Shown: positions 18,527 to 57,254 of the stretch, piece by piece | Layout: each line of letters begins with the position of its first letter | Position numbering within the stretch: the stretch's first letter is position 1 | NCBI RefSeq assembly: GCF_002854065.1 | Contig: NZ_CP024147.1 | Source: Escherichia coli | GTDB taxonomy: Bacteria; Pseudomonadota; Gammaproteobacteria; Enterobacterales; Enterobacteriaceae | DNA: 64,000 nucleotides | Direction: 5' to 3' (one strand) | Notes under the pieces: model-generated | Database searches by the model: none | What the model was told of the DNA's origin: nothing | Seen by the model: the letters and a program-made list of their open reading frames with translations, nothing else | Program-made: the position numbers and the translations under genes

Positions 18527-21500
18527 ATGAAGTTTTTACCCTATATTTTTCTTCTCTGTTGTGGTCTTTGGTCGACCATAAGTTTCGCAGACGAAGATTA
18601 CATCGAATATCGTGGCATCAGTAGTAACAACCGTGTCACACTTGATCCACTACGTCTGAGCAACAAGGAATTACGTTGGTTAGCGAGCAAAAAAAATCTT
18701 GTGATTGCAGTACATAAGTCCCAAACGGCTACGTTGTTGCATACCGATTCGCAGCAACGGGTTCGTGGTATTAATGCTGATTATTTAAATCTTTTAAAAA
18801 GAGCGTTAAATATCAAATTAACACTCCGGGAATACGCCGATCACCAAAAAGCAATGGACGCGCTGGAAGAAGGTGAAGTCGATATAGTGTTATCACATTT
18901 AGTTGCTTCGCCGCCTCTTAATGATGACATTGCTGCAACCAAACCACTGATAATTACCTTTCCGGCGCTGGTCACCACCCTTCACGATTCAATGCGACCG
19001 CTTACCTCATCAAAACCAGTAAATATTGCTCGAGTAGCAAATTATCCCCCTGACGAGGTAATTCATCAATCATTTCCAAAAGCAACAATTATCTCTTTTA
19101 CAAATTTATATCAGGCATTAGCATCCGTCTCAGCCGGACAGAATGATTACTTTATTGGTAGTAACATCATTACCAGCAGTATGATTTCCCGCTATTTCAC
19201 TCACTCCTTAAATGTAGTGAAATATTATAACTCACCGCGTCAATATAATTTTTTCTTGACCAGAAAAGAATCTGTCGTTCTTAATGAAGTACTCAATCGA
19301 TTTGTTGATGCTTTGACAAATGAAGTTCGCTATGAAGTATCACAAAATTGGCTTGATACAGGAAACCTGGCCTTTCTGAACAAACCATTAGAACTCACTG
19401 AACATGAAAAACAGTGGATTAAGCAGCATCCCGATTTAAAGGTGCTGGAAAATCCTTACTCGCCCCCCTATTCTATGACGGATGAAAATGGCTCGGTTCG
19501 GGGCGTTATGGGGGACATTCTTAATATTATTACCTTGCAAACAGGTTTAAATTTTTCTCCGATCACCGTTTCACACAATATCCATGCTGGAACACAGCTG
19601 AATCCCGGCGGATGGGATATATTACCCGGTGCTATTTATAGTGAAGATAGAGAAAATAATGTTTTATTTGCTGAAGCCTTCATAACAACGCCTTACGTTT
19701 TTGTCATGCAAAAAGCGCCTGACAGTGAACAAACATTAAAAAAAGGAATGAAAGTTGCCATTCCATATTATTATGAGCTTCATTCGCAATTAAAAGAGAT
19801 GTATCCGGAGGTAGAGTGGATAAAAGTCGATAACGCCAGCGCTGCATTTCACAAGGTCAAGGAAGGCGAACTTGATGCTCTGGTCGCGACACAGTTAAAT
19901 TCACGTTACATGATCGACCATTACTATCCTAATGAACTTTATCATTTTCTTATTCCCGGCGTTCCGAATGCATCGCTTTCGTTCGCTTTTCCTCGCGGAG
20001 AACCGGAACTTAAGGATATTATTAATAAAGCACTGAATGCAATCCCCCCAAGCGAAGTTCTGCGCCTGACCGAAAAATGGATTAAAATGCCCAATGTGAC
20101 CATTGACACATGGGACCTCTATAGCGAGCAATTTTATATTGTTACGACATTATCCGTTTTATTAGTTGGCAGTAGCCTTTTATGGGGATTCTACCTGTTA
20201 CGCTCAGTTCGTCGTCGTAAAGTCATTCAGGGTGATTTAGAAAACCAAATATCATTCCGGAAAGCACTCTCGGATTCCTTACCGAATCCAACTTATGTTG
20301 TAAACTGGCAAGGTAATGTCATTAGTCATAATAGTGCTTTTGAACATTATTTCACTGCGGATTACTACAAAAATGCAATGTTACCATTAGAAAACAGTGA
20401 CTCCCCCTTTAAAGATGTTTTTTCTAATGCGCATGAAGTCACAGCAGAAACGAAAGAAAATCGAACAATATACACACAGGTATTTGAAATTGATAATGGC
20501 ATCGAGAAAAGATGCATTAATCACTGGCATACATTATGCAATCTGCCAGCCAGCGAACATGCTGTTTATATTTGTGGTTGGCAAGATATTACCGAGACGC
20601 GTGATTTAATTCATGCACTCGAAGTAGAGAGAAATAAAGCGATCAATGCAACTGTCGCAAAAAGCCAGTTTCTGGCAACAATGAGTCACGAAATAAGAAC
20701 ACCAATTAGCTCCATTATGGGCTTCCTGGAACTTCTGTCGGGTTCTGGTCTTAGCAAGGAGCAACGTGTGGAGGCGATTTCACTTGCCTACGCCACCGGA
20801 CAATCACTCCTCGGCTTAATTGGTGAAATCCTTGATGTCGACAAAATTGAATCGGGTAACTATCAACTTCAACCACAATGGGTCGATATTCCTACTTTAG
20901 TCCAGAACACTTGTCACTCTTTCGGTGCGATTGCTGCAAGCAAATCGATCGCATTAAGTTGCAGCAGTACGTTTCCTGAACATTACCTGGTTAAGATCGA
21001 CCCTCAGGCGTTTAAGCAGGTCTTATCAAATTTACTGAGTAATGCTCTCAAATTTACCACCGAGGGGGCAGTAAAAATTACGACCTCCCTGGTTCACATT
21101 GATGACAACCACGCTGTAATCAAAATGACGATTATGGATTCTGGAAGTGGATTATCACAGGAAGAACAACAACAACTGTTTAAACGTTATAGCCAAACAA
21201 GTGCAGGTCGTCAGCAAACAGGTTCTGGTTTAGGCTTAATGATCTGCAAAGAATTAATTAAAAACATGCAGGGTGATTTGTCATTAGAAAGTCATCCAGG
21301 CATAGGAACAACATTTACGATCACAATCCCGGTAGAAATTACCCAACAAGTGGCGGCTGTCGAGGCAAAAGCAGAACAACCTATCACACTACCTGAAAAG
21401 TTGAGCATATTAATCGCGGATGATCATCCGACCAACAGGCTATTACTCAAACGCCAGCTAAATCTATTAGGATATGATGTTGACGAAGCCACTGATGGTG

Positions 21501-51613: not shown

Positions 51614-52006
51614 ATGAAAAGATTACGCAATAAAATGACCACCGAAGAACTGGCTGAATGCCTCGGTGTGGCTAAACAAACTGTTAACCGTTGGATCAGA
51701 GAAAAAGGCTGGAAAACGGAAAAATTTCCCGGCGTGAAAGGCGGTCGTGCCAGACTTATTCTGGTCGATACGCAAGTTTGCGAGTTTATTCAGAACACGC
51801 CAGCCTTCCATAACACACCGATGCTTCTGGAAGCCGAAGAACCCCTTGCCGAATACGCACCGGGGATTCGCACTCCTGCTTATCGGCAAATCATAAGCGC
51901 AATAGACAACATGACTCACAGTGAGCAGGAAAAAGTTGCGCAATTTTTGTCACGCGAAGGAATTCGTAATTTCCTTGCTCGTCTCGACATAGATGAATCA
52001 GCTTGA
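51614..52006 (+). CDS. yfeD: Small putative DNA-binding protein (YfeD family)
   Basis: 130 aa (..ELAECLGVAKQTVNRWIREKGW..), paralog of yfeC. Confidence 0.75.
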   Translation: MKRLRNKMTTEELAECLGVAKQTVNRWIREKGWKTEKFPGVKGGRARLILVDTQVCEFIQNTPAFHNTPMLLEAEEPLAEYAPGIRTPAYRQIISAIDNMTHSEQEKVAQFLSREGIRNFLARLDIDESA

Positions 52007-52045
52007 CATCCTCCACGCCCTGAATGACGAGGATCCCTGCTACGT

Positions 52046-53254
52046 TCAGGCTGTCGCCTGAATCATTTCGGTGGGTTCCTGCTTCAACGAGTGGCCTGAC
52101 TGCACCATCTCTCCACAGGCAAGAACGGCGTGCCCCGCCGCTAAAATGTTACGAGCGCCGTTTACATCGGCGTTCGCTGTATATCCACATACCTGGCATC
52201 TGAATTTACTTTGTGACAGGCGATTTTCTTTCGCTGTATGACCACAGCACGCGCAACGCTGGCTTGTGTACGCTGGCGGAACAGCAAGCACCTGACCGCC
52301 TCGCCAGAGCTGCTTGTACTCAAGCTGGCGGCGCATTTCATACCAGCCCTGATCCAGTATCGAACGGTTTAAACCTGATTTTGCCCGGACATTGCGCCCC
52401 GGCTGGCTGACCGTACCCGCTGCTGACTTTGACATGTTGCTGACCTTCAAATCCTCAATGACTATCATTGCGTGGTTTTTGCTGACGGTCGTTGTGACTT
52501 TGTGAAGGTAGTCTCTGCGGATATTTGCGGTACAGGAATGCAGTCGCTGTATTTTGCGTTTCTGCTTCTGCCAGTTATTGCTGAATTTGACCTTGCGGCT
52601 TAACTGTCGCTGAAGTCTCGCCAGCTTCTTCTGGTTTTTCTGAAAACTGTTTACAGGCTCAAAGACTGTGCCATCTGACAGCGTGGCGAGTTTAGCCACG
52701 CCAGCATCCAGTCCGACCATTGATGCTGAAGGGTGAACCGGAGTTGATACTTCACTTTCTGTCTGAATACTGATGTACCACTTACCGCAGGACTGGCTGA
52801 CAGTGACATTTTTCACAACACCCGTGACCTGACGGCTGTTCCGGTAGCGCATCCAGCCAAGTTTCGGCAGAAAAATACGGCTGTTTTCCTGATCGAGCTT
52901 AACGCCCTGCGGGTAGCGGAATGCATCATTCTGTCCCCGCTTTTTGAATCGGGGAAAAGCAGCCCGCTTCCGGAAGAAGTTTTTGTAAGCCCGCTCAAGG
53001 TCTTTCAGTGACTGTTGCAATGGCTGTGAGGGCGAATCTTTAAGCCATTGCGTTTCAGTGGCATTTTTCCACTCAACCAGCCAGGAAGCCATTTTCCCGT
53101 AAGGGATGTATTTATTACCGGCCTCATGATTCTCATTCTGACGTGCCAGAGCACGATTGAAAACGAAACGACATGCGCCTGCGAAGCGCCTCATTTCACG
53201 CTCCTGTTGACCAGCGGGTCTTAACTGGAATTTAAATGCCTGTAGTCGTTTCAC
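52046..53254 (-). CDS. tnpB: TnpB (OrfB) RuvC-like nuclease of IS200/IS605 family, putative RNA-guided
   Basis: 402 aa with RuvC-I (..[10 protein letters not shown]..), RuvC-II (..[10 protein letters not shown]..), a zinc finger (CACCGH...CQVCGY) and RuvC-III (..[10 protein letters not shown]..). Confidence 0.85.
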
Positions 53255-53261
53255 AGGCCAA

Positions 53262-53804
53262 ATGATACTTTGGTCTATGAATAAAGAAACCGATATCCGA
53301 CGGGGAAGGCATTGTGTTTTCCTGATGCATGTTCATCTGGTCTTTGTCACCAGATACCGACGTCAGATTTTTGACTATGACGCGACAGAAAAACTACGCA
53401 CTTACTTTTCAAATGTATGTGCTGATTTTGAAGCTGAACTGGTTGAAATGGATGGCGAACCAGATCACGTCCATTTGTTAATTAACTATCCTCCCAAACT
53501 GGCGATATCCAGTCTGGTAAACAGCCTCAAAGGCGTATCGGGTAGGTTACTGCGACGAGATCGACCAGATATTGCAGTCAGGTATTACTACAAAGGCGTT
53601 TTGTGGAGTCCTGGCTATTTTGCCAGTAGCTGCGGAGGTGCGCCAATATCCGTCATCCGCCAATACATTGAACAACAGCAAACACCTGGTCAGGTGGAAA
53701 ACCGCGCCTTATATCCCCGCCCTGAAGGACGGGGTTTTACGGCGCACCGGATAAATAAAAAACGGCAGGGGTATCTCTCCTGCCGTTTATCTTTTATGCG
53801 CTAA
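53262..53804 (+). CDS. tnpA: TnpA (Y1 HUH transposase) of IS200/IS605 family, with C-terminal tail reading into flanking DNA
   Basis: IS200-like core (..HCVFLMHVHLVFVTRYRRQIF.., HUH motif DHVHLLINY, Tyr region ..RQYIEQQ..). Likely start is MNKE at 53277. The ORF continues to 53804, across the presumed gltX terminator. Confidence 0.75.
   Translation: MILWSMNKETDIRRGRHCVFLMHVHLVFVTRYRRQIFDYDATEKLRTYFSNVCADFEAELVEMDGEPDHVHLLINYPPKLAISSLVNSLKGVSGRLLRRDRPDIAVRYYYKGVLWSPGYFASSCGGAPISVIRQYIEQQQTPGQVENRALYPRPEGRGFTAHRINKKRQGYLSCRLSFMR
53755..53787 (-). terminator. Candidate gltX rho-independent terminator
   Basis: On the minus strand a hairpin (ACGGCAGG ... CCTGCCGT) is followed by a U-run (A-run 53755..53762 on plus), immediately after the gltX stop. 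Confidence 0.5.
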
Positions 53805-55220
53805 TTACTGCTGATTTTCGCGTTCCGCAATAAAAGCCAGCGCTTTGTTGATACGCTCGATACTGCGGGTCTTACCGATTGCGTGAACGGTAACATCCAG
53901 TGCTGGAGACTGCCCCGCACCGGTTACGGCGACACGCAGCGGCATACCAACTTTACCCATACCCACTTCCAGCTCATCCGCCGTCGCCTGAATAGCGTGA
54001 TGAACGTTTTCAGCGGTCCAGTCAGTAATCGCGGCCAGTTTGTCACGAACCACTTCCAGCGGCTGACGCGCTACCGGACGCAGATGTTTTTTCGCCGCAT
54101 CGGCATCGAACTCAGCAAAATCTTCGTAGAAATAACGGCAGCTCTGTGCCATCTCTTTCAGCGTCTTGCAGCGTTCGCCCAGCAGTTTCACCAGATCAGC
54201 CAGCTGCGGGCCGTTACGGGTATCGATATTTTCCTGCTCAATGTGCCACTGTAAGTGAGTAGCAACATACTCCGGCGGCAGCGCGTTAATGTAGTGATGG
54301 TTCAGCCACAGCAGCTTGTCGGTGTTGAACGCACTGGCAGATTTGCTGACGGCATTCAAAGTGAAGTATTTGATCATCTCTTCACGAGTGAAGATTTCCT
54401 GATCGCCGTGGGACCAGCCCAGACGCACCAGATAGTTCAGCAGTGCTTCTGGCAAATAACCGTCATCACGATACTGCATTACGCTGACTGCCCCGTGACG
54501 TTTGGACAGTTTTTTGCCGTCATCGCCGTTGATCATAGAAACGTGCGCGTAAACCGGTACCGGCGCTTTCAGGGCTTTAAGAATATTGATCTGGCGTGGC
54601 GTGTTGTTGATATGGTCTTCGCCACGGATAACGTGGGTGATTTCCATATCCCAGTCATCGACAACCACACAGAAGTTATAGGTTGGGGAACCATCGGTAC
54701 GGCGGATAATAAGATCGTCCAGTTCCTGGTTGCTGAACTCGATCGGACCACGGATCTGATCGTCAAAAACAACAGAACCTTCCTGCGGGTTAGCAAAACG
54801 TACGACACACGGCTCATCATCAGCGTGATGCTCATGACTGTGGCGGCAGCGACCGTCATAACGCGGCTTCTCACCTTTCGCCATTTGCTCTTCGCGCAGC
54901 GCTTCCAGGCGCTCTTTAGAGCAATAGCATTTATAAGCAGTGCCCTCTTCCAGCATCTGATCGATCACCGCGTTGTAGCGATCAAAACGTTTGGTCTGGA
55001 AGTACGGACCTTCATCCCACTCCAGGCTCAGCCAGTTCATGCCATCCATAATGGCTTCGATAGCTTCCGGCGTGGAACGCTCAAGATCGGTGTCTTCAAT
55101 ACGCAGCACGAACTCACCGCCGTGATTACGTGCAAAAAGCCAGGAGTAAAGAGCAGTACGCGCGCCGCCAACGTGCAGATAGCCTGTTGGGCTTGGCGCG
55201 AAGCGAGTTTTGATTTTCAT
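53805..55220 (-). CDS. gltX: Glutamyl-tRNA synthetase
   Basis: 471 aa class I aaRS with HIGH-type (..[12 protein letters not shown]..) and KMSKS-type (..KLSKR..) motifs. Confidence 0.95.
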
Positions 55221-55478: not shown

Positions 55479-55554
55479 GGGTGATTAGCTCAGCTGGGAG
55501 AGCACCTCCCTTACAAGGAGGGGGTCGGCGGTTCGATCCCGTCATCACCCACCA
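55479..55554 (+). tRNA. valU: tRNA-Val (anticodon UAC)
   Basis: GGGTGATTAGCTCAGCTGGGAGAGCACCTCCCTTACAAGGAGGGGGTCGGCGGTTCGATCCCGTCATCACCCACCA (76 nt). Confidence 0.9.
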
Positions 55555-55598
55555 ACTGCTTTATGTAGTCTCCGCCGTGTAGCAAGAAATTGAGAAGT

Positions 55599-55674
55599 GG
55601 GTGATTAGCTCAGCTGGGAGAGCACCTCCCTTACAAGGAGGGGGTCGGCGGTTCGATCCCGTCATCACCCACCA
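55599..55674 (+). tRNA. valX: tRNA-Val (anticodon UAC), copy 2
   Basis: Identical 76-nt sequence. Confidence 0.9.
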
Positions 55675-55720
55675 CTTTCTCACCAGCTAAATTTCTTGTA
55701 AAAATGTGAAGTACCGAAGT

Positions 55721-55796
55721 GGGTGATTAGCTCAGCTGGGAGAGCACCTCCCTTACAAGGAGGGGGTCGGCGGTTCGATCCCGTCATCACCCACCA
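55721..55796 (+). tRNA. valY: tRNA-Val (anticodon UAC), copy 3
   Basis: Identical 76-nt sequence. Confidence 0.9.
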
Positions 55797-55800
55797 CTTC

Positions 55801-55876
55801 GGGTCGTTAGCTCAGTTGGTAGAGCAGTTGACTTTTAATCAATTGGTCGCAGGTTCGAATCCTGCACGACCCACCA
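55801..55876 (+). tRNA. lysV: tRNA-Lys (anticodon UUU)
   Basis: GGGTCGTTAGCTCAGTTGGTAGAGCAGTTGACTTTTAATCAATTGGTCGCAGGTTCGAATCCTGCACGACCCACCA (76 nt), 4 bp after valY. Confidence 0.9.
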
Positions 55877-55879
55877 ATG

Positions 55880-55908
55880 TAAAAAAGCGCCCTAAAGGCG
55901 CTTTTTTG
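55880..55908 (+). terminator. Rho-independent terminator of the valU-valX-valY-lysV tRNA operon
   Basis: AAAAAAGCGCC-CTAAA-GGCGCTTTTTT. Confidence 0.8.
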
Positions 55909-55940
55909 CTATCTGCGATTTGTATGATTGATTTTTCTTC

Positions 55941-55967
55941 TCAAGTTCCTTGTTCTTCTACCGATAT
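55941..55967 (+). promoter_or_regulatory. Candidate sigma-28 (FliA) promoter upstream of the FlxA-like gene
   Basis: TCAAGTTC-N11-ACCGATAT compared with the consensus TAAAGTTT-N11-GCCGATAA (6/8 and 6/8 matches, correct spacing), ending 29 bp before the ATG. Confidence 0.4.
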
Positions 55968-55995
55968 TACCTCGTACAGTGACGAGGACTGAACA

Positions 55996-56337
55996 ATGGC
56001 CACTATCTCTTCAACTTCAATTCCTTCCATACAAACACAGAGTAGTAACAGGGCATCACAAGGTAGCGATGTTGCTTCACAAATCGCGCGGATAAGTCAG
56101 CAAATCATCAAACTCACTCAACAAATTAAAGAGATTGTAGATACTAGCGGCAGTGCTGAAGACAAGCAAAAACAGGCCGAATTGATTCAACAGCAAATCA
56201 CCCTACTGGAAACACAACTGGCGCAGTTGCAGAGACAGCAGGCAGAAAAGGCGCAGGAGAAAGAGCAGCGTTTGTCTCTGAATGTATCCCTTCTAAATCC
56301 TGTTGAAAATACGACTCATATCGATATCTATATCTGA
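55996..56337 (+). CDS. FlxA-like coiled-coil protein (113 aa)
   Basis: [15 protein letters not shown]...[20 protein letters not shown]...[31 protein letters not shown]...HIDIYI. Same architecture and C-terminal ...D(I/V)YI ending as the prophage-encoded FliA-dependent FlxA. Confidence 0.7.
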
Positions 56338-57254
56338 TACAACGGATCCCCTTCCCGACCAGCCATTAGCGCATTGCCCTGGTCTCGTACCACGTCCCAT
56401 AACGCTTCAGCGGCGGTGGAAAGTGAACGGTTCTTCCTGCGCACCAGCATCAACTGGCGTTCAACAACCGGCGTAATGCGCTTTACCACCAGCGGGCTAC
56501 CTTCAGGCAATGGTAGCGCCAGTGCGGGAAGAATACTGATGCCGATGCCTGCGGCTACCATCGGGAACAGCGTCGCCGGATGTCCAATCTCCTGCACAAT
56601 ATTCGCCTGAATACCATTGCGCGCCAGCGCTGCGTCAATCAGCGGTCGGCTGCCTGACGCGTAATCCTGCAACACCAATTTCGCTCCCTGTAATGCCTGC
56701 CAGGGTACATAATCTTCCACGGTCAAAGCGCTATCGCGATGGCAAAGCAGAAAGAAAGGCTCGGAAAGAATCGCTTCACATTGCAGATCGCCCACTGGGC
56801 CTGGATCGATGACGATGCCAAAGTCGACATCTCCCTGGCGAATACTTTCCATCACCCACTGCTGCGGACGATCGTGCAGGACAAACTGAATATCTGGATA
56901 GCGGCGATGGCTTTCAGCAATGCATTGCGGAATAAGATGCGCGGAAATGGTCTGGCTGGCAGCGACCCGAACTTTTCCGCTCAGTTGTTGCCCCATACGC
57001 CCGGTATCGCGCAACGTGCTGTTAAGTTCATCCAGCAGTCGCTCAAGACGCAAAGCCAACTGCTGCCCTGCATCTGTAAGCACCACTTCACGCGTGGTTC
57101 TGTCCAGCAGGCGAACACCAGTATGATTTTCCAGCTCCTTCACACTGTGACTTACTGCCGACTGGCTCAGGCCGATACGCTCTCCTGCACGACTAAAACT
57201 TTTCTCCTGCGCTACTGTGACGAAAACCTTTAATTGTTTTAAAGAATAATTCAT
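56328..57254 (-). CDS. yfeR: LysR-family transcriptional regulator
   Basis: 308 aa with N-terminal LysR HTH ([42 protein letters not shown]...). Its 3' end overlaps the FlxA-like gene by 10 bp, convergently. Confidence 0.85.

Follow-up and report, generated by a model that had tools for sequence, protein, structure and literature searches.

An FlxA-like gene between lysV and yfeR in Escherichia coli and its predicted sigma-28 promoter

Locus layout and identity of the FlxA-like gene

Directly after the valU-valX-valY-lysV tRNA operon, a stretch of Escherichia coli DNA (64,000 nucleotides of contig NZ_CP024147.1, assembly GCF_002854065.1; referred to here as the window) carries a single gene for a 113-amino-acid (aa) FlxA-like protein, which runs tail to tail into the regulator gene yfeR. 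This is, with near certainty, a real protein-coding gene of the FlxA family. A first-pass annotation, made from the sequence alone, had described a tRNA-operon terminator followed by a 113-aa open reading frame (ORF) that overlaps yfeR by 10 bp, and every one of these features was found where it had been placed. The features of the locus are as follows.

53805-55220, minus strand: gltX (ORF list)
55479-55876, plus strand: valU-valX-valY-lysV operon, three tRNA-Val genes and one tRNA-Lys gene (ARAGORN, Rfam)
55801-55876, plus strand: lysV, tRNA-Lys (UUU), the final gene of the operon (ARAGORN; Rfam tRNA, 79 bits)
About 55879-55909, plus strand: intrinsic terminator of the tRNA operon, AAAAAAGCGCC-CTAAA-GGCGCTTTTTT, a 13-bp hairpin (fold)
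55923-56326, unstranded: haplotype-specific segment of 404 bp, comprising the promoter and nearly the whole coding sequence (alignment with the K-12-type locus)
55941-55968, plus strand: predicted FliA (sigma-28) class-3 promoter (matrix score, conservation)
55941-55948, plus strand: -35-like element of this promoter, TCAAGTTC (read from the sequence)
55960-55967, plus strand: -10 element of this promoter, ACCGATAT, 11-nt spacer after TCAAGTTC
55984-55988, plus strand: Shine-Dalgarno sequence GAGGA, 7 nt 5' of the ATG (read from the sequence)
55996-56337, plus strand: FlxA-like gene, 113 aa, ATG start, RefSeq WP_000201414.1 (ORF list, Pfam PF14282)
56328-56337, unstranded: tail-to-tail overlap of the FlxA-like and yfeR frames, 10 nt, CTATATCTGA (ORF coordinates)
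56328-57254, minus strand: yfeR, LysR-type regulator, 308 aa, intact, convergent with the FlxA-like gene (ORF list, RefSeq)

The terminator hairpin of the tRNA operon had a folding energy of -19.1 kcal/mol (z=-5.3), and none of 200 shuffled sequences was equally stable. It was overlooked by a consensus terminator scan because its T-run forms part of the stem. The terminator shields the FlxA-like gene from read-through of the tRNA operon. On the other side of the gene, yfeR is followed in the window by yfeH.

The FlxA-like assignment was borne out by homology searches. The protein matched the Pfam family FlxA (PF14282) with E=9.1e-14 (51.8 bits, residues 15-92 against positions 4-82 of the 101 in the model), the second-best Pfam family reaching E=7.7e-4 and the remainder being coiled-coil noise, and BLASTP against FlxA of E. 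coli K-12 gave E=2e-12 with 43% identity over 74 aa; the two proteins have a common C-terminal IDIY[IV]. An exhaustive HMMER search of 1.8 billion proteins yielded 80 family representatives at E<=1e-3, nearly all of them of about 105-120 aa. A chance frame in a low-complexity stretch rich in Q, A and L, with a Pfam match arising from coiled-coil composition only, is hardly credible as an alternative. It could draw on the numerous weak coiled-coil matches in Pfam and NCBIfam beside FlxA, and on the fact that NCBIfam, which has no model for the FlxA family, gave only sub-threshold coiled-coil matches and none at cut-off. However, the FlxA match stood ten orders of magnitude above the next Pfam match, the orthologues preserve length, frame, start context and a C-terminal motif that is not coiled coil, and the ratio of non-synonymous to synonymous divergence (dN/dS) was 0.13-0.16 (0.16 against Pseudocitrobacter faecalis, 0.13-0.15 against Kluyvera and Enterobacter). 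Conservation has thus already refuted a chance origin. The gene is not new, being annotated in RefSeq as 'FlxA-like family protein' (WP_000201414.1) and in O157:H7 Sakai as 'flxA' (ECs_3279), and for the window alone it is an ordinary gene; a literature search under the FlxA-like name or the locus tags, including ECs3279, found nothing for it.

The protein also showed the architecture of the family, which consists of about 100-120 aa with a variable Ser/Thr-rich N-terminus, a heptad centre and a C-terminal [IV]D[IV]Y[IV], as judged from a 29-sequence alignment, 39 orthologues and an AlphaFold2 model. In the alignment, a variable N-terminus rich in Ser, Thr, Gln and Gly was followed by a conserved centre (consensus ASQIxxIxxQIxxLTxQLK ... 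KQQELIQxQIxxLQAQLAQLQxxQAE) and a conserved C-terminal tail, G(V/I)NxPxxxxxIDIYI. The AlphaFold2 model based on these 29 sequences (mean pLDDT, the predicted local distance difference test, 68; about 80-89 in the helices and below 50 in residues 1-22) comprised an antiparallel helical hairpin formed by residues 24-49 and 54-99, with residues 1-22 and 96-113 disordered. Ser and Thr together made up 48%, and charged residues 5%, of positions 2-25 in the 39 orthologues, compared with 13% and 19%, respectively, in 42 control ORFs; over the N-terminal 25 residues it is composition that is conserved, not sequence. No signal peptide or transmembrane segment was found in the protein.

The closest characterized relative is FlxA of K-12 (b1566), the founding member of PF14282, encoded in the Qin cryptic prophage. 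The two proteins belong to the same family, are similar in size (110 and 113 aa), are encoded monocistronically and share a Ser/Thr-rich N-terminus, a central coiled coil and the C-terminal IDIY[IV]; the K-12 gene likewise has a FliA-type promoter directly upstream, TAAAGATT-N11-GCCGATAG, which is bound in chromatin immunoprecipitation (ChIP) and is FliA-dependent (PMC4183435). They differ in that the proteins are only 43% identical over the 74 aa mentioned above and DNA similarity is undetectable. K-12 flxA is moreover prophage cargo (1200 of 5426 genomes at >=99% identity; PHROG 11044; a single phage record), whereas the present gene is a chromosomal, syntenic resident adjoining yfeR for which FliA dependence is predicted. 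Its product matched PHROG 11044 weakly. The absence of DNA similarity, the other context and the weak PHROG match indicate that the gene is not an orthologue of K-12 flxA, but a distant paralogue.

The predicted sigma-28 promoter

A position weight matrix for FliA was built from 52 FliA motifs defined by ChIP sequencing (ChIP-seq) (Fitzgerald et al. 2014, PMC4183435 Table 2). With 15.5 bits, the 28-mer TCAAGTTC-N11-ACCGATAT was the top-scoring site on both strands of the window; it ranked 21st of 53 among the leave-one-out scores of known sites, at the median of the 52 ChIP-defined sites and ahead of fliC, ycgR, aer and trg. It conforms to the class-3 promoter pattern of a TAAAGTTT-like -35 element, an 11-nt spacer and a GCCGATAA-like -10 element, and would place the start of transcription near 55974-55977. 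No sigma-70-like promoter was found between the tRNA terminator and the ATG.

Several points weigh against reading a promoter from this match. At P=2.4e-6 per position, 0.31 matches of this quality are expected by chance on the two strands of the window, and 30 of 100 dinucleotide shuffles contained a match at least as good, so that the score by itself is weak evidence. The -10 element begins with A and not G, and the -35 element reads TCAAG and not TAAAG. In addition, the gene is absent from K-12, and FliA dependence, shown for the K-12 paralogue, is a prediction for this gene. For the 16 positions that lie at the proper distance and on the proper strand 5' of this ATG, the expectation is 3.9e-5.

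The upstream regions of 40 FlxA-like loci from other genera, collected by a profile search with a 9-sequence subset, were then scanned with a matrix from which K-12 flxA had been left out (2972 background windows; 99th percentile 11.8 bits, 99.9th percentile 14.3 bits); all synteny and promoter counts, here and below, are among the loci listed, and they do not imply that Salmonella, Klebsiella or other Escherichia species lack the gene. A site of 13-23 bits ending 25-33 nt 5' of the ATG was present in 37 of the 40, and one additional locus had an 18.9-bit site 51 nt 5' of the ATG. When aligned on the ATG, the upstream spacers had diverged except for a CAAG block, a GCCGATA block and the ribosome-binding site, the orthologues carrying an AGG or GAGG block at the position equivalent to GAGGA. 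A distant homologue (38% identity), located between rpoD-dnaG-rpsU-tsaD-plsY-folB and an integrase-like gene, has a 20.3-bit FliA site 37 nt upstream. The candidate FliA-type promoter proposed in the first-pass annotation is thus present at its proposed position and has equivalents at nearly all of the related loci. Because such sites are conserved across these loci and in the distant homologue, control of the FlxA-like gene by FliA is judged very likely, as far as sequence comparison can tell.

The K-12 paralogue is bound by FliA and fell from 280 to 2 when fliA was deleted (PMC4183435); a change of -28-fold was recorded in a second study (PMC1935009). Other stand-alone genes outside the flagellar clusters, namely ynjH, yjcZ/yjdA, modA, ves, ycgR and pdeH/yhjH, have promoters of the same TAAAG-N-GCCGATAA type (PMC4183435 Table 2). 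Their proteins are unrelated to FlxA. Among FlxA genes, conservation of the promoter extends throughout the family and to different genomic contexts.

A hairpin in the 5' untranslated region that could occlude the ribosome-binding site (CCUCGU/ACGAGG, 55970-55987, plus strand, -8.6 kcal/mol) was considered and rejected, since it was not significant against shuffled sequences (z=-0.9) and transcription probably starts downstream of its 5' arm. Elsewhere in the window, TCAACTTCAACCACAATGGGTCGATATT at 20863-20890 (plus strand) scored 13.7 bits and agreed at 27 of 28 bases with the intragenic evgS site found by FliA ChIP-seq in K-12 (PMC4183435 Table 2), which indicates that this weak site is conserved in the present genome. 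Three further matches to the matrix, of 13.3-13.9 bits at 18538 (minus strand), 63529 (plus strand) and 38351 (plus strand), were at or below the chance expectation for the window.

Haplotypes and descent of the gene

The FlxA-like arrangement was found in 1305-1317 of 5426 complete E. coli genomes (24%), including O157:H7, E. coli B and E24377A. The remaining E. coli, including K-12, have the order lysV-(RtT-like repeat)-xapR-xapB-xapA-yfeN-yfeR, which bears out the first-pass annotation for K-12 (xapR-xapB-xapA-yfeN at this place) and shows the locus to be polymorphic within the species. Homology between the haplotypes stops after GCTATCTGCGATTTG (55922) and restarts at CTATATCTGATACAACGG, at the yfeR stop codon (56327); the megablast break at query position 928 likewise corresponds to 56327. 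The specific segment measures 404 bp here, compared with about 4.4 kb in K-12 (RtT-like repeat plus xapR-xapB-xapA-yfeN). Both haplotypes are flanked by gltX plus the tRNA operon at one end and by yfeR-yfeH-ypeB-ligA at the other, with about 99% identity outside the variable segment. The K-12-type haplotype differs in having the operon for xanthosine utilisation and a gene for an OmpK/Tsx-like porin instead of the FlxA-like gene, and a hairpin between yfeN and yfeR. The K-12 xapA-yfeN spacer contained no FliA site before yfeN (best score 5.0 bits) and showed no homology to the region upstream of the FlxA-like gene.

In other genera the gene occupied the same gltX-ligA interval at 38 of the 40 loci, which represent more than 15 genera, among them Pseudocitrobacter, Kluyvera, Pluralibacter, Citrobacter, Enterobacter, Leclercia, Lelliottia, Cedecea, Buttiauxella, Superficieibacter, Kosakonia, Phytobacter, Siccibacter and Pantoea. 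It was convergent with yfeR at 35 of the 40, and an extra homologue was found between gltX and ypeB-ligA without yfeR. Six loci, three from Citrobacter and three from Enterobacter, have the order lysV-xapRBA-flxA-like-yfeR, so that presence of the xap operon does not preclude that of the FlxA-like gene; yfeN fills the slot of the FlxA-like gene only in K-12-type E. coli. Between E. coli and P. faecalis the FlxA-like gene had a synonymous divergence (dS) of 0.58, and yfeR and gltX had values of 0.73 and 0.78; this pattern is in keeping with vertical descent. The 404-bp segment held no integrase or mobility genes, only the promoter and the ORF, and no attachment-site (att)-like direct repeat of the tRNA 3' end flanked it, a 14-nt match of 86% inside yfeR being a chance pair. 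No match to the protein was found in the phage collection, and the plasmid collection contained no true copy; the two 'plasmid' records that matched are probably mislabelled chromosomes, since they measure 4.8-4.9 Mb.

With conserved synteny, a dS like that of the flanking genes and no signs of mobility, the FlxA-like gene appears to be the ancestral element and the xapRBA(-yfeN) block the variable one. An ancestral, vertically inherited residence of the gene at this site is therefore regarded as highly probable, and the E. coli polymorphism stems from the ancestral gene having been lost or replaced and not from its insertion. In K-12-type E. coli both the gene and the promoter are gone, the loss ending precisely at the stop codon of yfeR. 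The first-pass annotation had called the locus a typical insertion/deletion hotspot next to a tRNA cluster. The polymorphism and the difference from K-12 are real, but the implied picture of a gene dropped in beside the tRNA operon does not agree with the synteny or with the absence of an integrase or repeat.

Two observations count against vertical descent. The gene has a GC content of 43%, and its GC content at third codon positions (GC3) is 0.42, compared with 0.55-0.61 in its neighbours. Furthermore, an uncultured Pseudocitrobacter metagenome-assembled genome (MAG; CAJYVI010000110.1, L005:637-1100) carries the gene and promoter with about 93% DNA identity to the E. coli copy, dS being 0.11 for the FlxA-like gene, 0.70 for yfeR and 1.19 for yfeH. 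The MAG copy represents either a recent lateral exchange of the segment alone or a chimeric contig; the near-identity of the gene beside diverged flanks suggests that occasional lateral exchange of this small segment does occur. Together with the position beside a tRNA operon, the presence in only 24% of complete E. coli genomes and the prophage location of K-12 FlxA, these data could suggest that the gene came in by horizontal transfer, as an islet or the remnant of a prophage inserted beside the tRNA cluster. Such an origin is very improbable and has been largely refuted: the gene keeps its place across the genera listed above without an integrase, an att-like repeat or a phage or plasmid copy, its divergence from P. 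faecalis parallels that of the flanking genes, and GC3 is lower than that of yfeR in the orthologues too (30 of 35 loci).

An RtT-like repeat follows lysV in K-12-type E. coli (L002:2400-2560) and in P. faecalis (L006:3720-3900), with a second lysV 3' end and terminator. Rfam detected no RtT in the window at 55877-55925, where there is a single terminator copy, and an RtT copy is present in some of the E. coli genomes with the FlxA-like gene (H3, H6 and H8). An apparent third haplotype, annotated with major facilitator superfamily (MFS) transporter and FlxA-like pseudogenes between lysV and yfeR in NZ_CP116925.1 (E. coli MLI104K2, L004:2300-3450), was not used, since this stretch is full of long G and C homopolymers and looks like an assembly of low quality.

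Overlap with yfeR and possible roles of the product

FlxA has been known as a member of the flagellar regulon of E. coli since 1997 and has usually been dismissed as cargo of the Qin prophage. Three points are modestly new here: the sigma-28 promoter is conserved throughout the family, the chromosomal position is ancestral, and the gene's overlap with yfeR is itself conserved. Across the Enterobacteriaceae, the FlxA family includes a member that is chromosomal and inherited vertically, and this member, its conserved promoter and the overlap together argue for a real, conserved late-flagellar role. O157:H7, E24377A, Enterobacter and Citrobacter are better organisms than K-12 in which to test it.

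The 10-bp overlap reported in the first-pass annotation is not peculiar to this genome. The FlxA-like gene and yfeR overlapped at 34 of 35 loci from other genera, by 10 nt in 23 (...TATATCTGA) and by 4 nt in 11 (e.g. TTAA). With such an overlap, a terminator cannot be accommodated between them. In this window, no terminator-like structure was found beyond either stop codon (z=+0.9, both strands), and the transcripts of both genes should consequently overlap. In K-12, YfeR has been reported to promote anaerobic biofilm formation by repressing fnr, with lower nitric oxide and higher cyclic di-GMP (c-di-GMP), and napA is involved (PMC11227560). A sigma-28 promoter that fires into yfeR as part of a motile-versus-sessile logic is a speculation; in such a scheme the overlap would be a regulatory device, with FliA-driven antisense transcription damping yfeR in a small switch that K-12 has lost, and this is given little credence.

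It is likewise improbable that the main selected role of the sigma-28 promoter is to make a regulatory RNA, which would lower YfeR during the motile programme through antisense pairing or transcriptional interference. The persistence of the overlap, the lack of a terminator-like structure after either stop codon in the window and the sense of an opposing control by the motility sigma factor over a regulator that raises c-di-GMP and biofilm formation (PMC11227560) are compatible with it. On the other hand, the protein is under purifying selection with conserved motifs, the FliA promoter is kept where yfeR is not adjacent (in the Qin prophage and at loci L050, L053 and L037-L039), and in some genera a hairpin occurs about 20 nt past the stop codon. 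The overlap could also persist merely through constraint on both C-termini. A terminator scan of 36 loci missed its positive controls, the lysV and gltX terminators, so that its counts were not used and absence of a terminator across genera is not established. In O157:H7 Sakai, a Trp codon changed to a premature stop makes yfeR (L049:6445-7371) a pseudogene, which differs at 12 nt from the intact copy of the window.

The reading preferred here is that the FlxA-like protein is a late, non-structural flagellar export substrate. Going by the conserved promoter sequence, the gene would be transcribed monocistronically by FliA RNA polymerase from its class-3 promoter, and would therefore be switched on only after the hook-basal body is complete and FlgM has been exported. 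Its 113-aa product, from sequence and model, should have a disordered, nearly uncharged, Ser/Thr-rich N-terminus, a helical hairpin and a GVNxPxxxxQIDIYI-type tail. This protein may be handed to the flagellar type III export apparatus and leave the cell as FlgM does, as a late substrate without a structural role. Cells should be motile without it, since K-12 FlxA is reportedly dispensable for flagellum formation and motility. The export step is put forward tentatively, and the whole chain, from an FlxA-family gene through FliA control and ancestral position to export, is given slightly less than an even chance. Were it exported, the protein would add a new non-structural member to the substrates of flagellar secretion in enteric bacteria.

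The experimental hints come from K-12 FlxA, for which the literature records no obvious role (PMC4183435) or describes a poorly characterised (PMC6551532) or uncharacterised (PMC11551758) protein. FlxA was quantified in the 0.22-um cell-free filtrate of E. coli DH5alpha (PMC6391000 Table 1), where it rose with FlgK, FliD, FliC, FlgL, FlgM and FlgE, each of which is a substrate of flagellar export. FlxA protein and mRNA showed opposite changes at 42 C, a temperature at which FlgM is exported inefficiently (PMC6551532). FlgM, the anti-sigma-28 factor, offers a working comparison for the FlxA-like protein: both are of about 100 aa, have a class-3 promoter (a predicted one for the FlxA-like gene), have largely disordered ends and lack a Sec signal, and FlgM was found with K-12 FlxA in the cell-free exoproteome (PMC6391000). 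There is no sequence or family relationship between the two, and the Pfam scan of the FlxA-like protein returned no anti-sigma (FlgM-type) family.

The case for export is weakened on several counts. Proteins of the cytoplasm, CheY among them, were also on the exoproteome list (PMC6391000), the direction of the changes in FlxA protein and mRNA is not stated in PMC6551532, and neither study used export mutants. A disordered N-terminus without a Sec signal would fit export but is no specific mark of it, and all experimental hints of export come from the 43%-identical prophage paralogue. We know of no chaperone or partner for the FlxA-like protein.

A possible alternative, which ranks close behind export, keeps the same gene and sigma-28 control and sees the product as a small coiled-coil protein of the cytoplasm that assists or regulates the late flagellar or motile programme, its conserved C-terminal tail binding a partner such as a signalling protein, a chaperone of the flagellum or a part of the motor or switch. 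Several non-structural products of the FliA regulon, such as YcgR and PdeH, act in the cytoplasm. Both are FliA targets listed in PMC4183435. The helical-hairpin core resembles many cytoplasmic adaptor proteins; the lack of a signal peptide or transmembrane segment and the presence of CheY in the same exoproteome as FlxA also agree with a cytoplasmic location. Against it, an N-terminus conserved in composition but not in sequence is a better fit to an export signal than to a binding surface, FlxA co-varied with flagellar export substrates in the cell-free filtrate, and abundant cytoplasmic class-3 proteins apart from CheY were absent from the filtrate list.

Further variation was seen on the gltX side of the locus. 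The tRNA operon varies by genus: 'Klebsiella sp.' BIGb0407 has a tandem duplicate of the whole valU-valX-valY-lysV cluster (L032:2040-3336), and the operon of the Pseudocitrobacter MAG comprises one tRNA-Val and four tRNA-Lys genes (L005:40-636). A copy of IS609 (IS200/IS605 family) lies between yfeD and gltX at about 52002-53749, abutting the gltX stop codon, with ORFs for an insQ/TnpB-like protein of 402 aa (52046-53254, minus strand) and a 180-aa transposase (53262-53804, plus strand). K-12 is without the element there, and O157:H7 Sakai has it at the same site; the window is colinear with Sakai at 99.26% identity over 11 kb.

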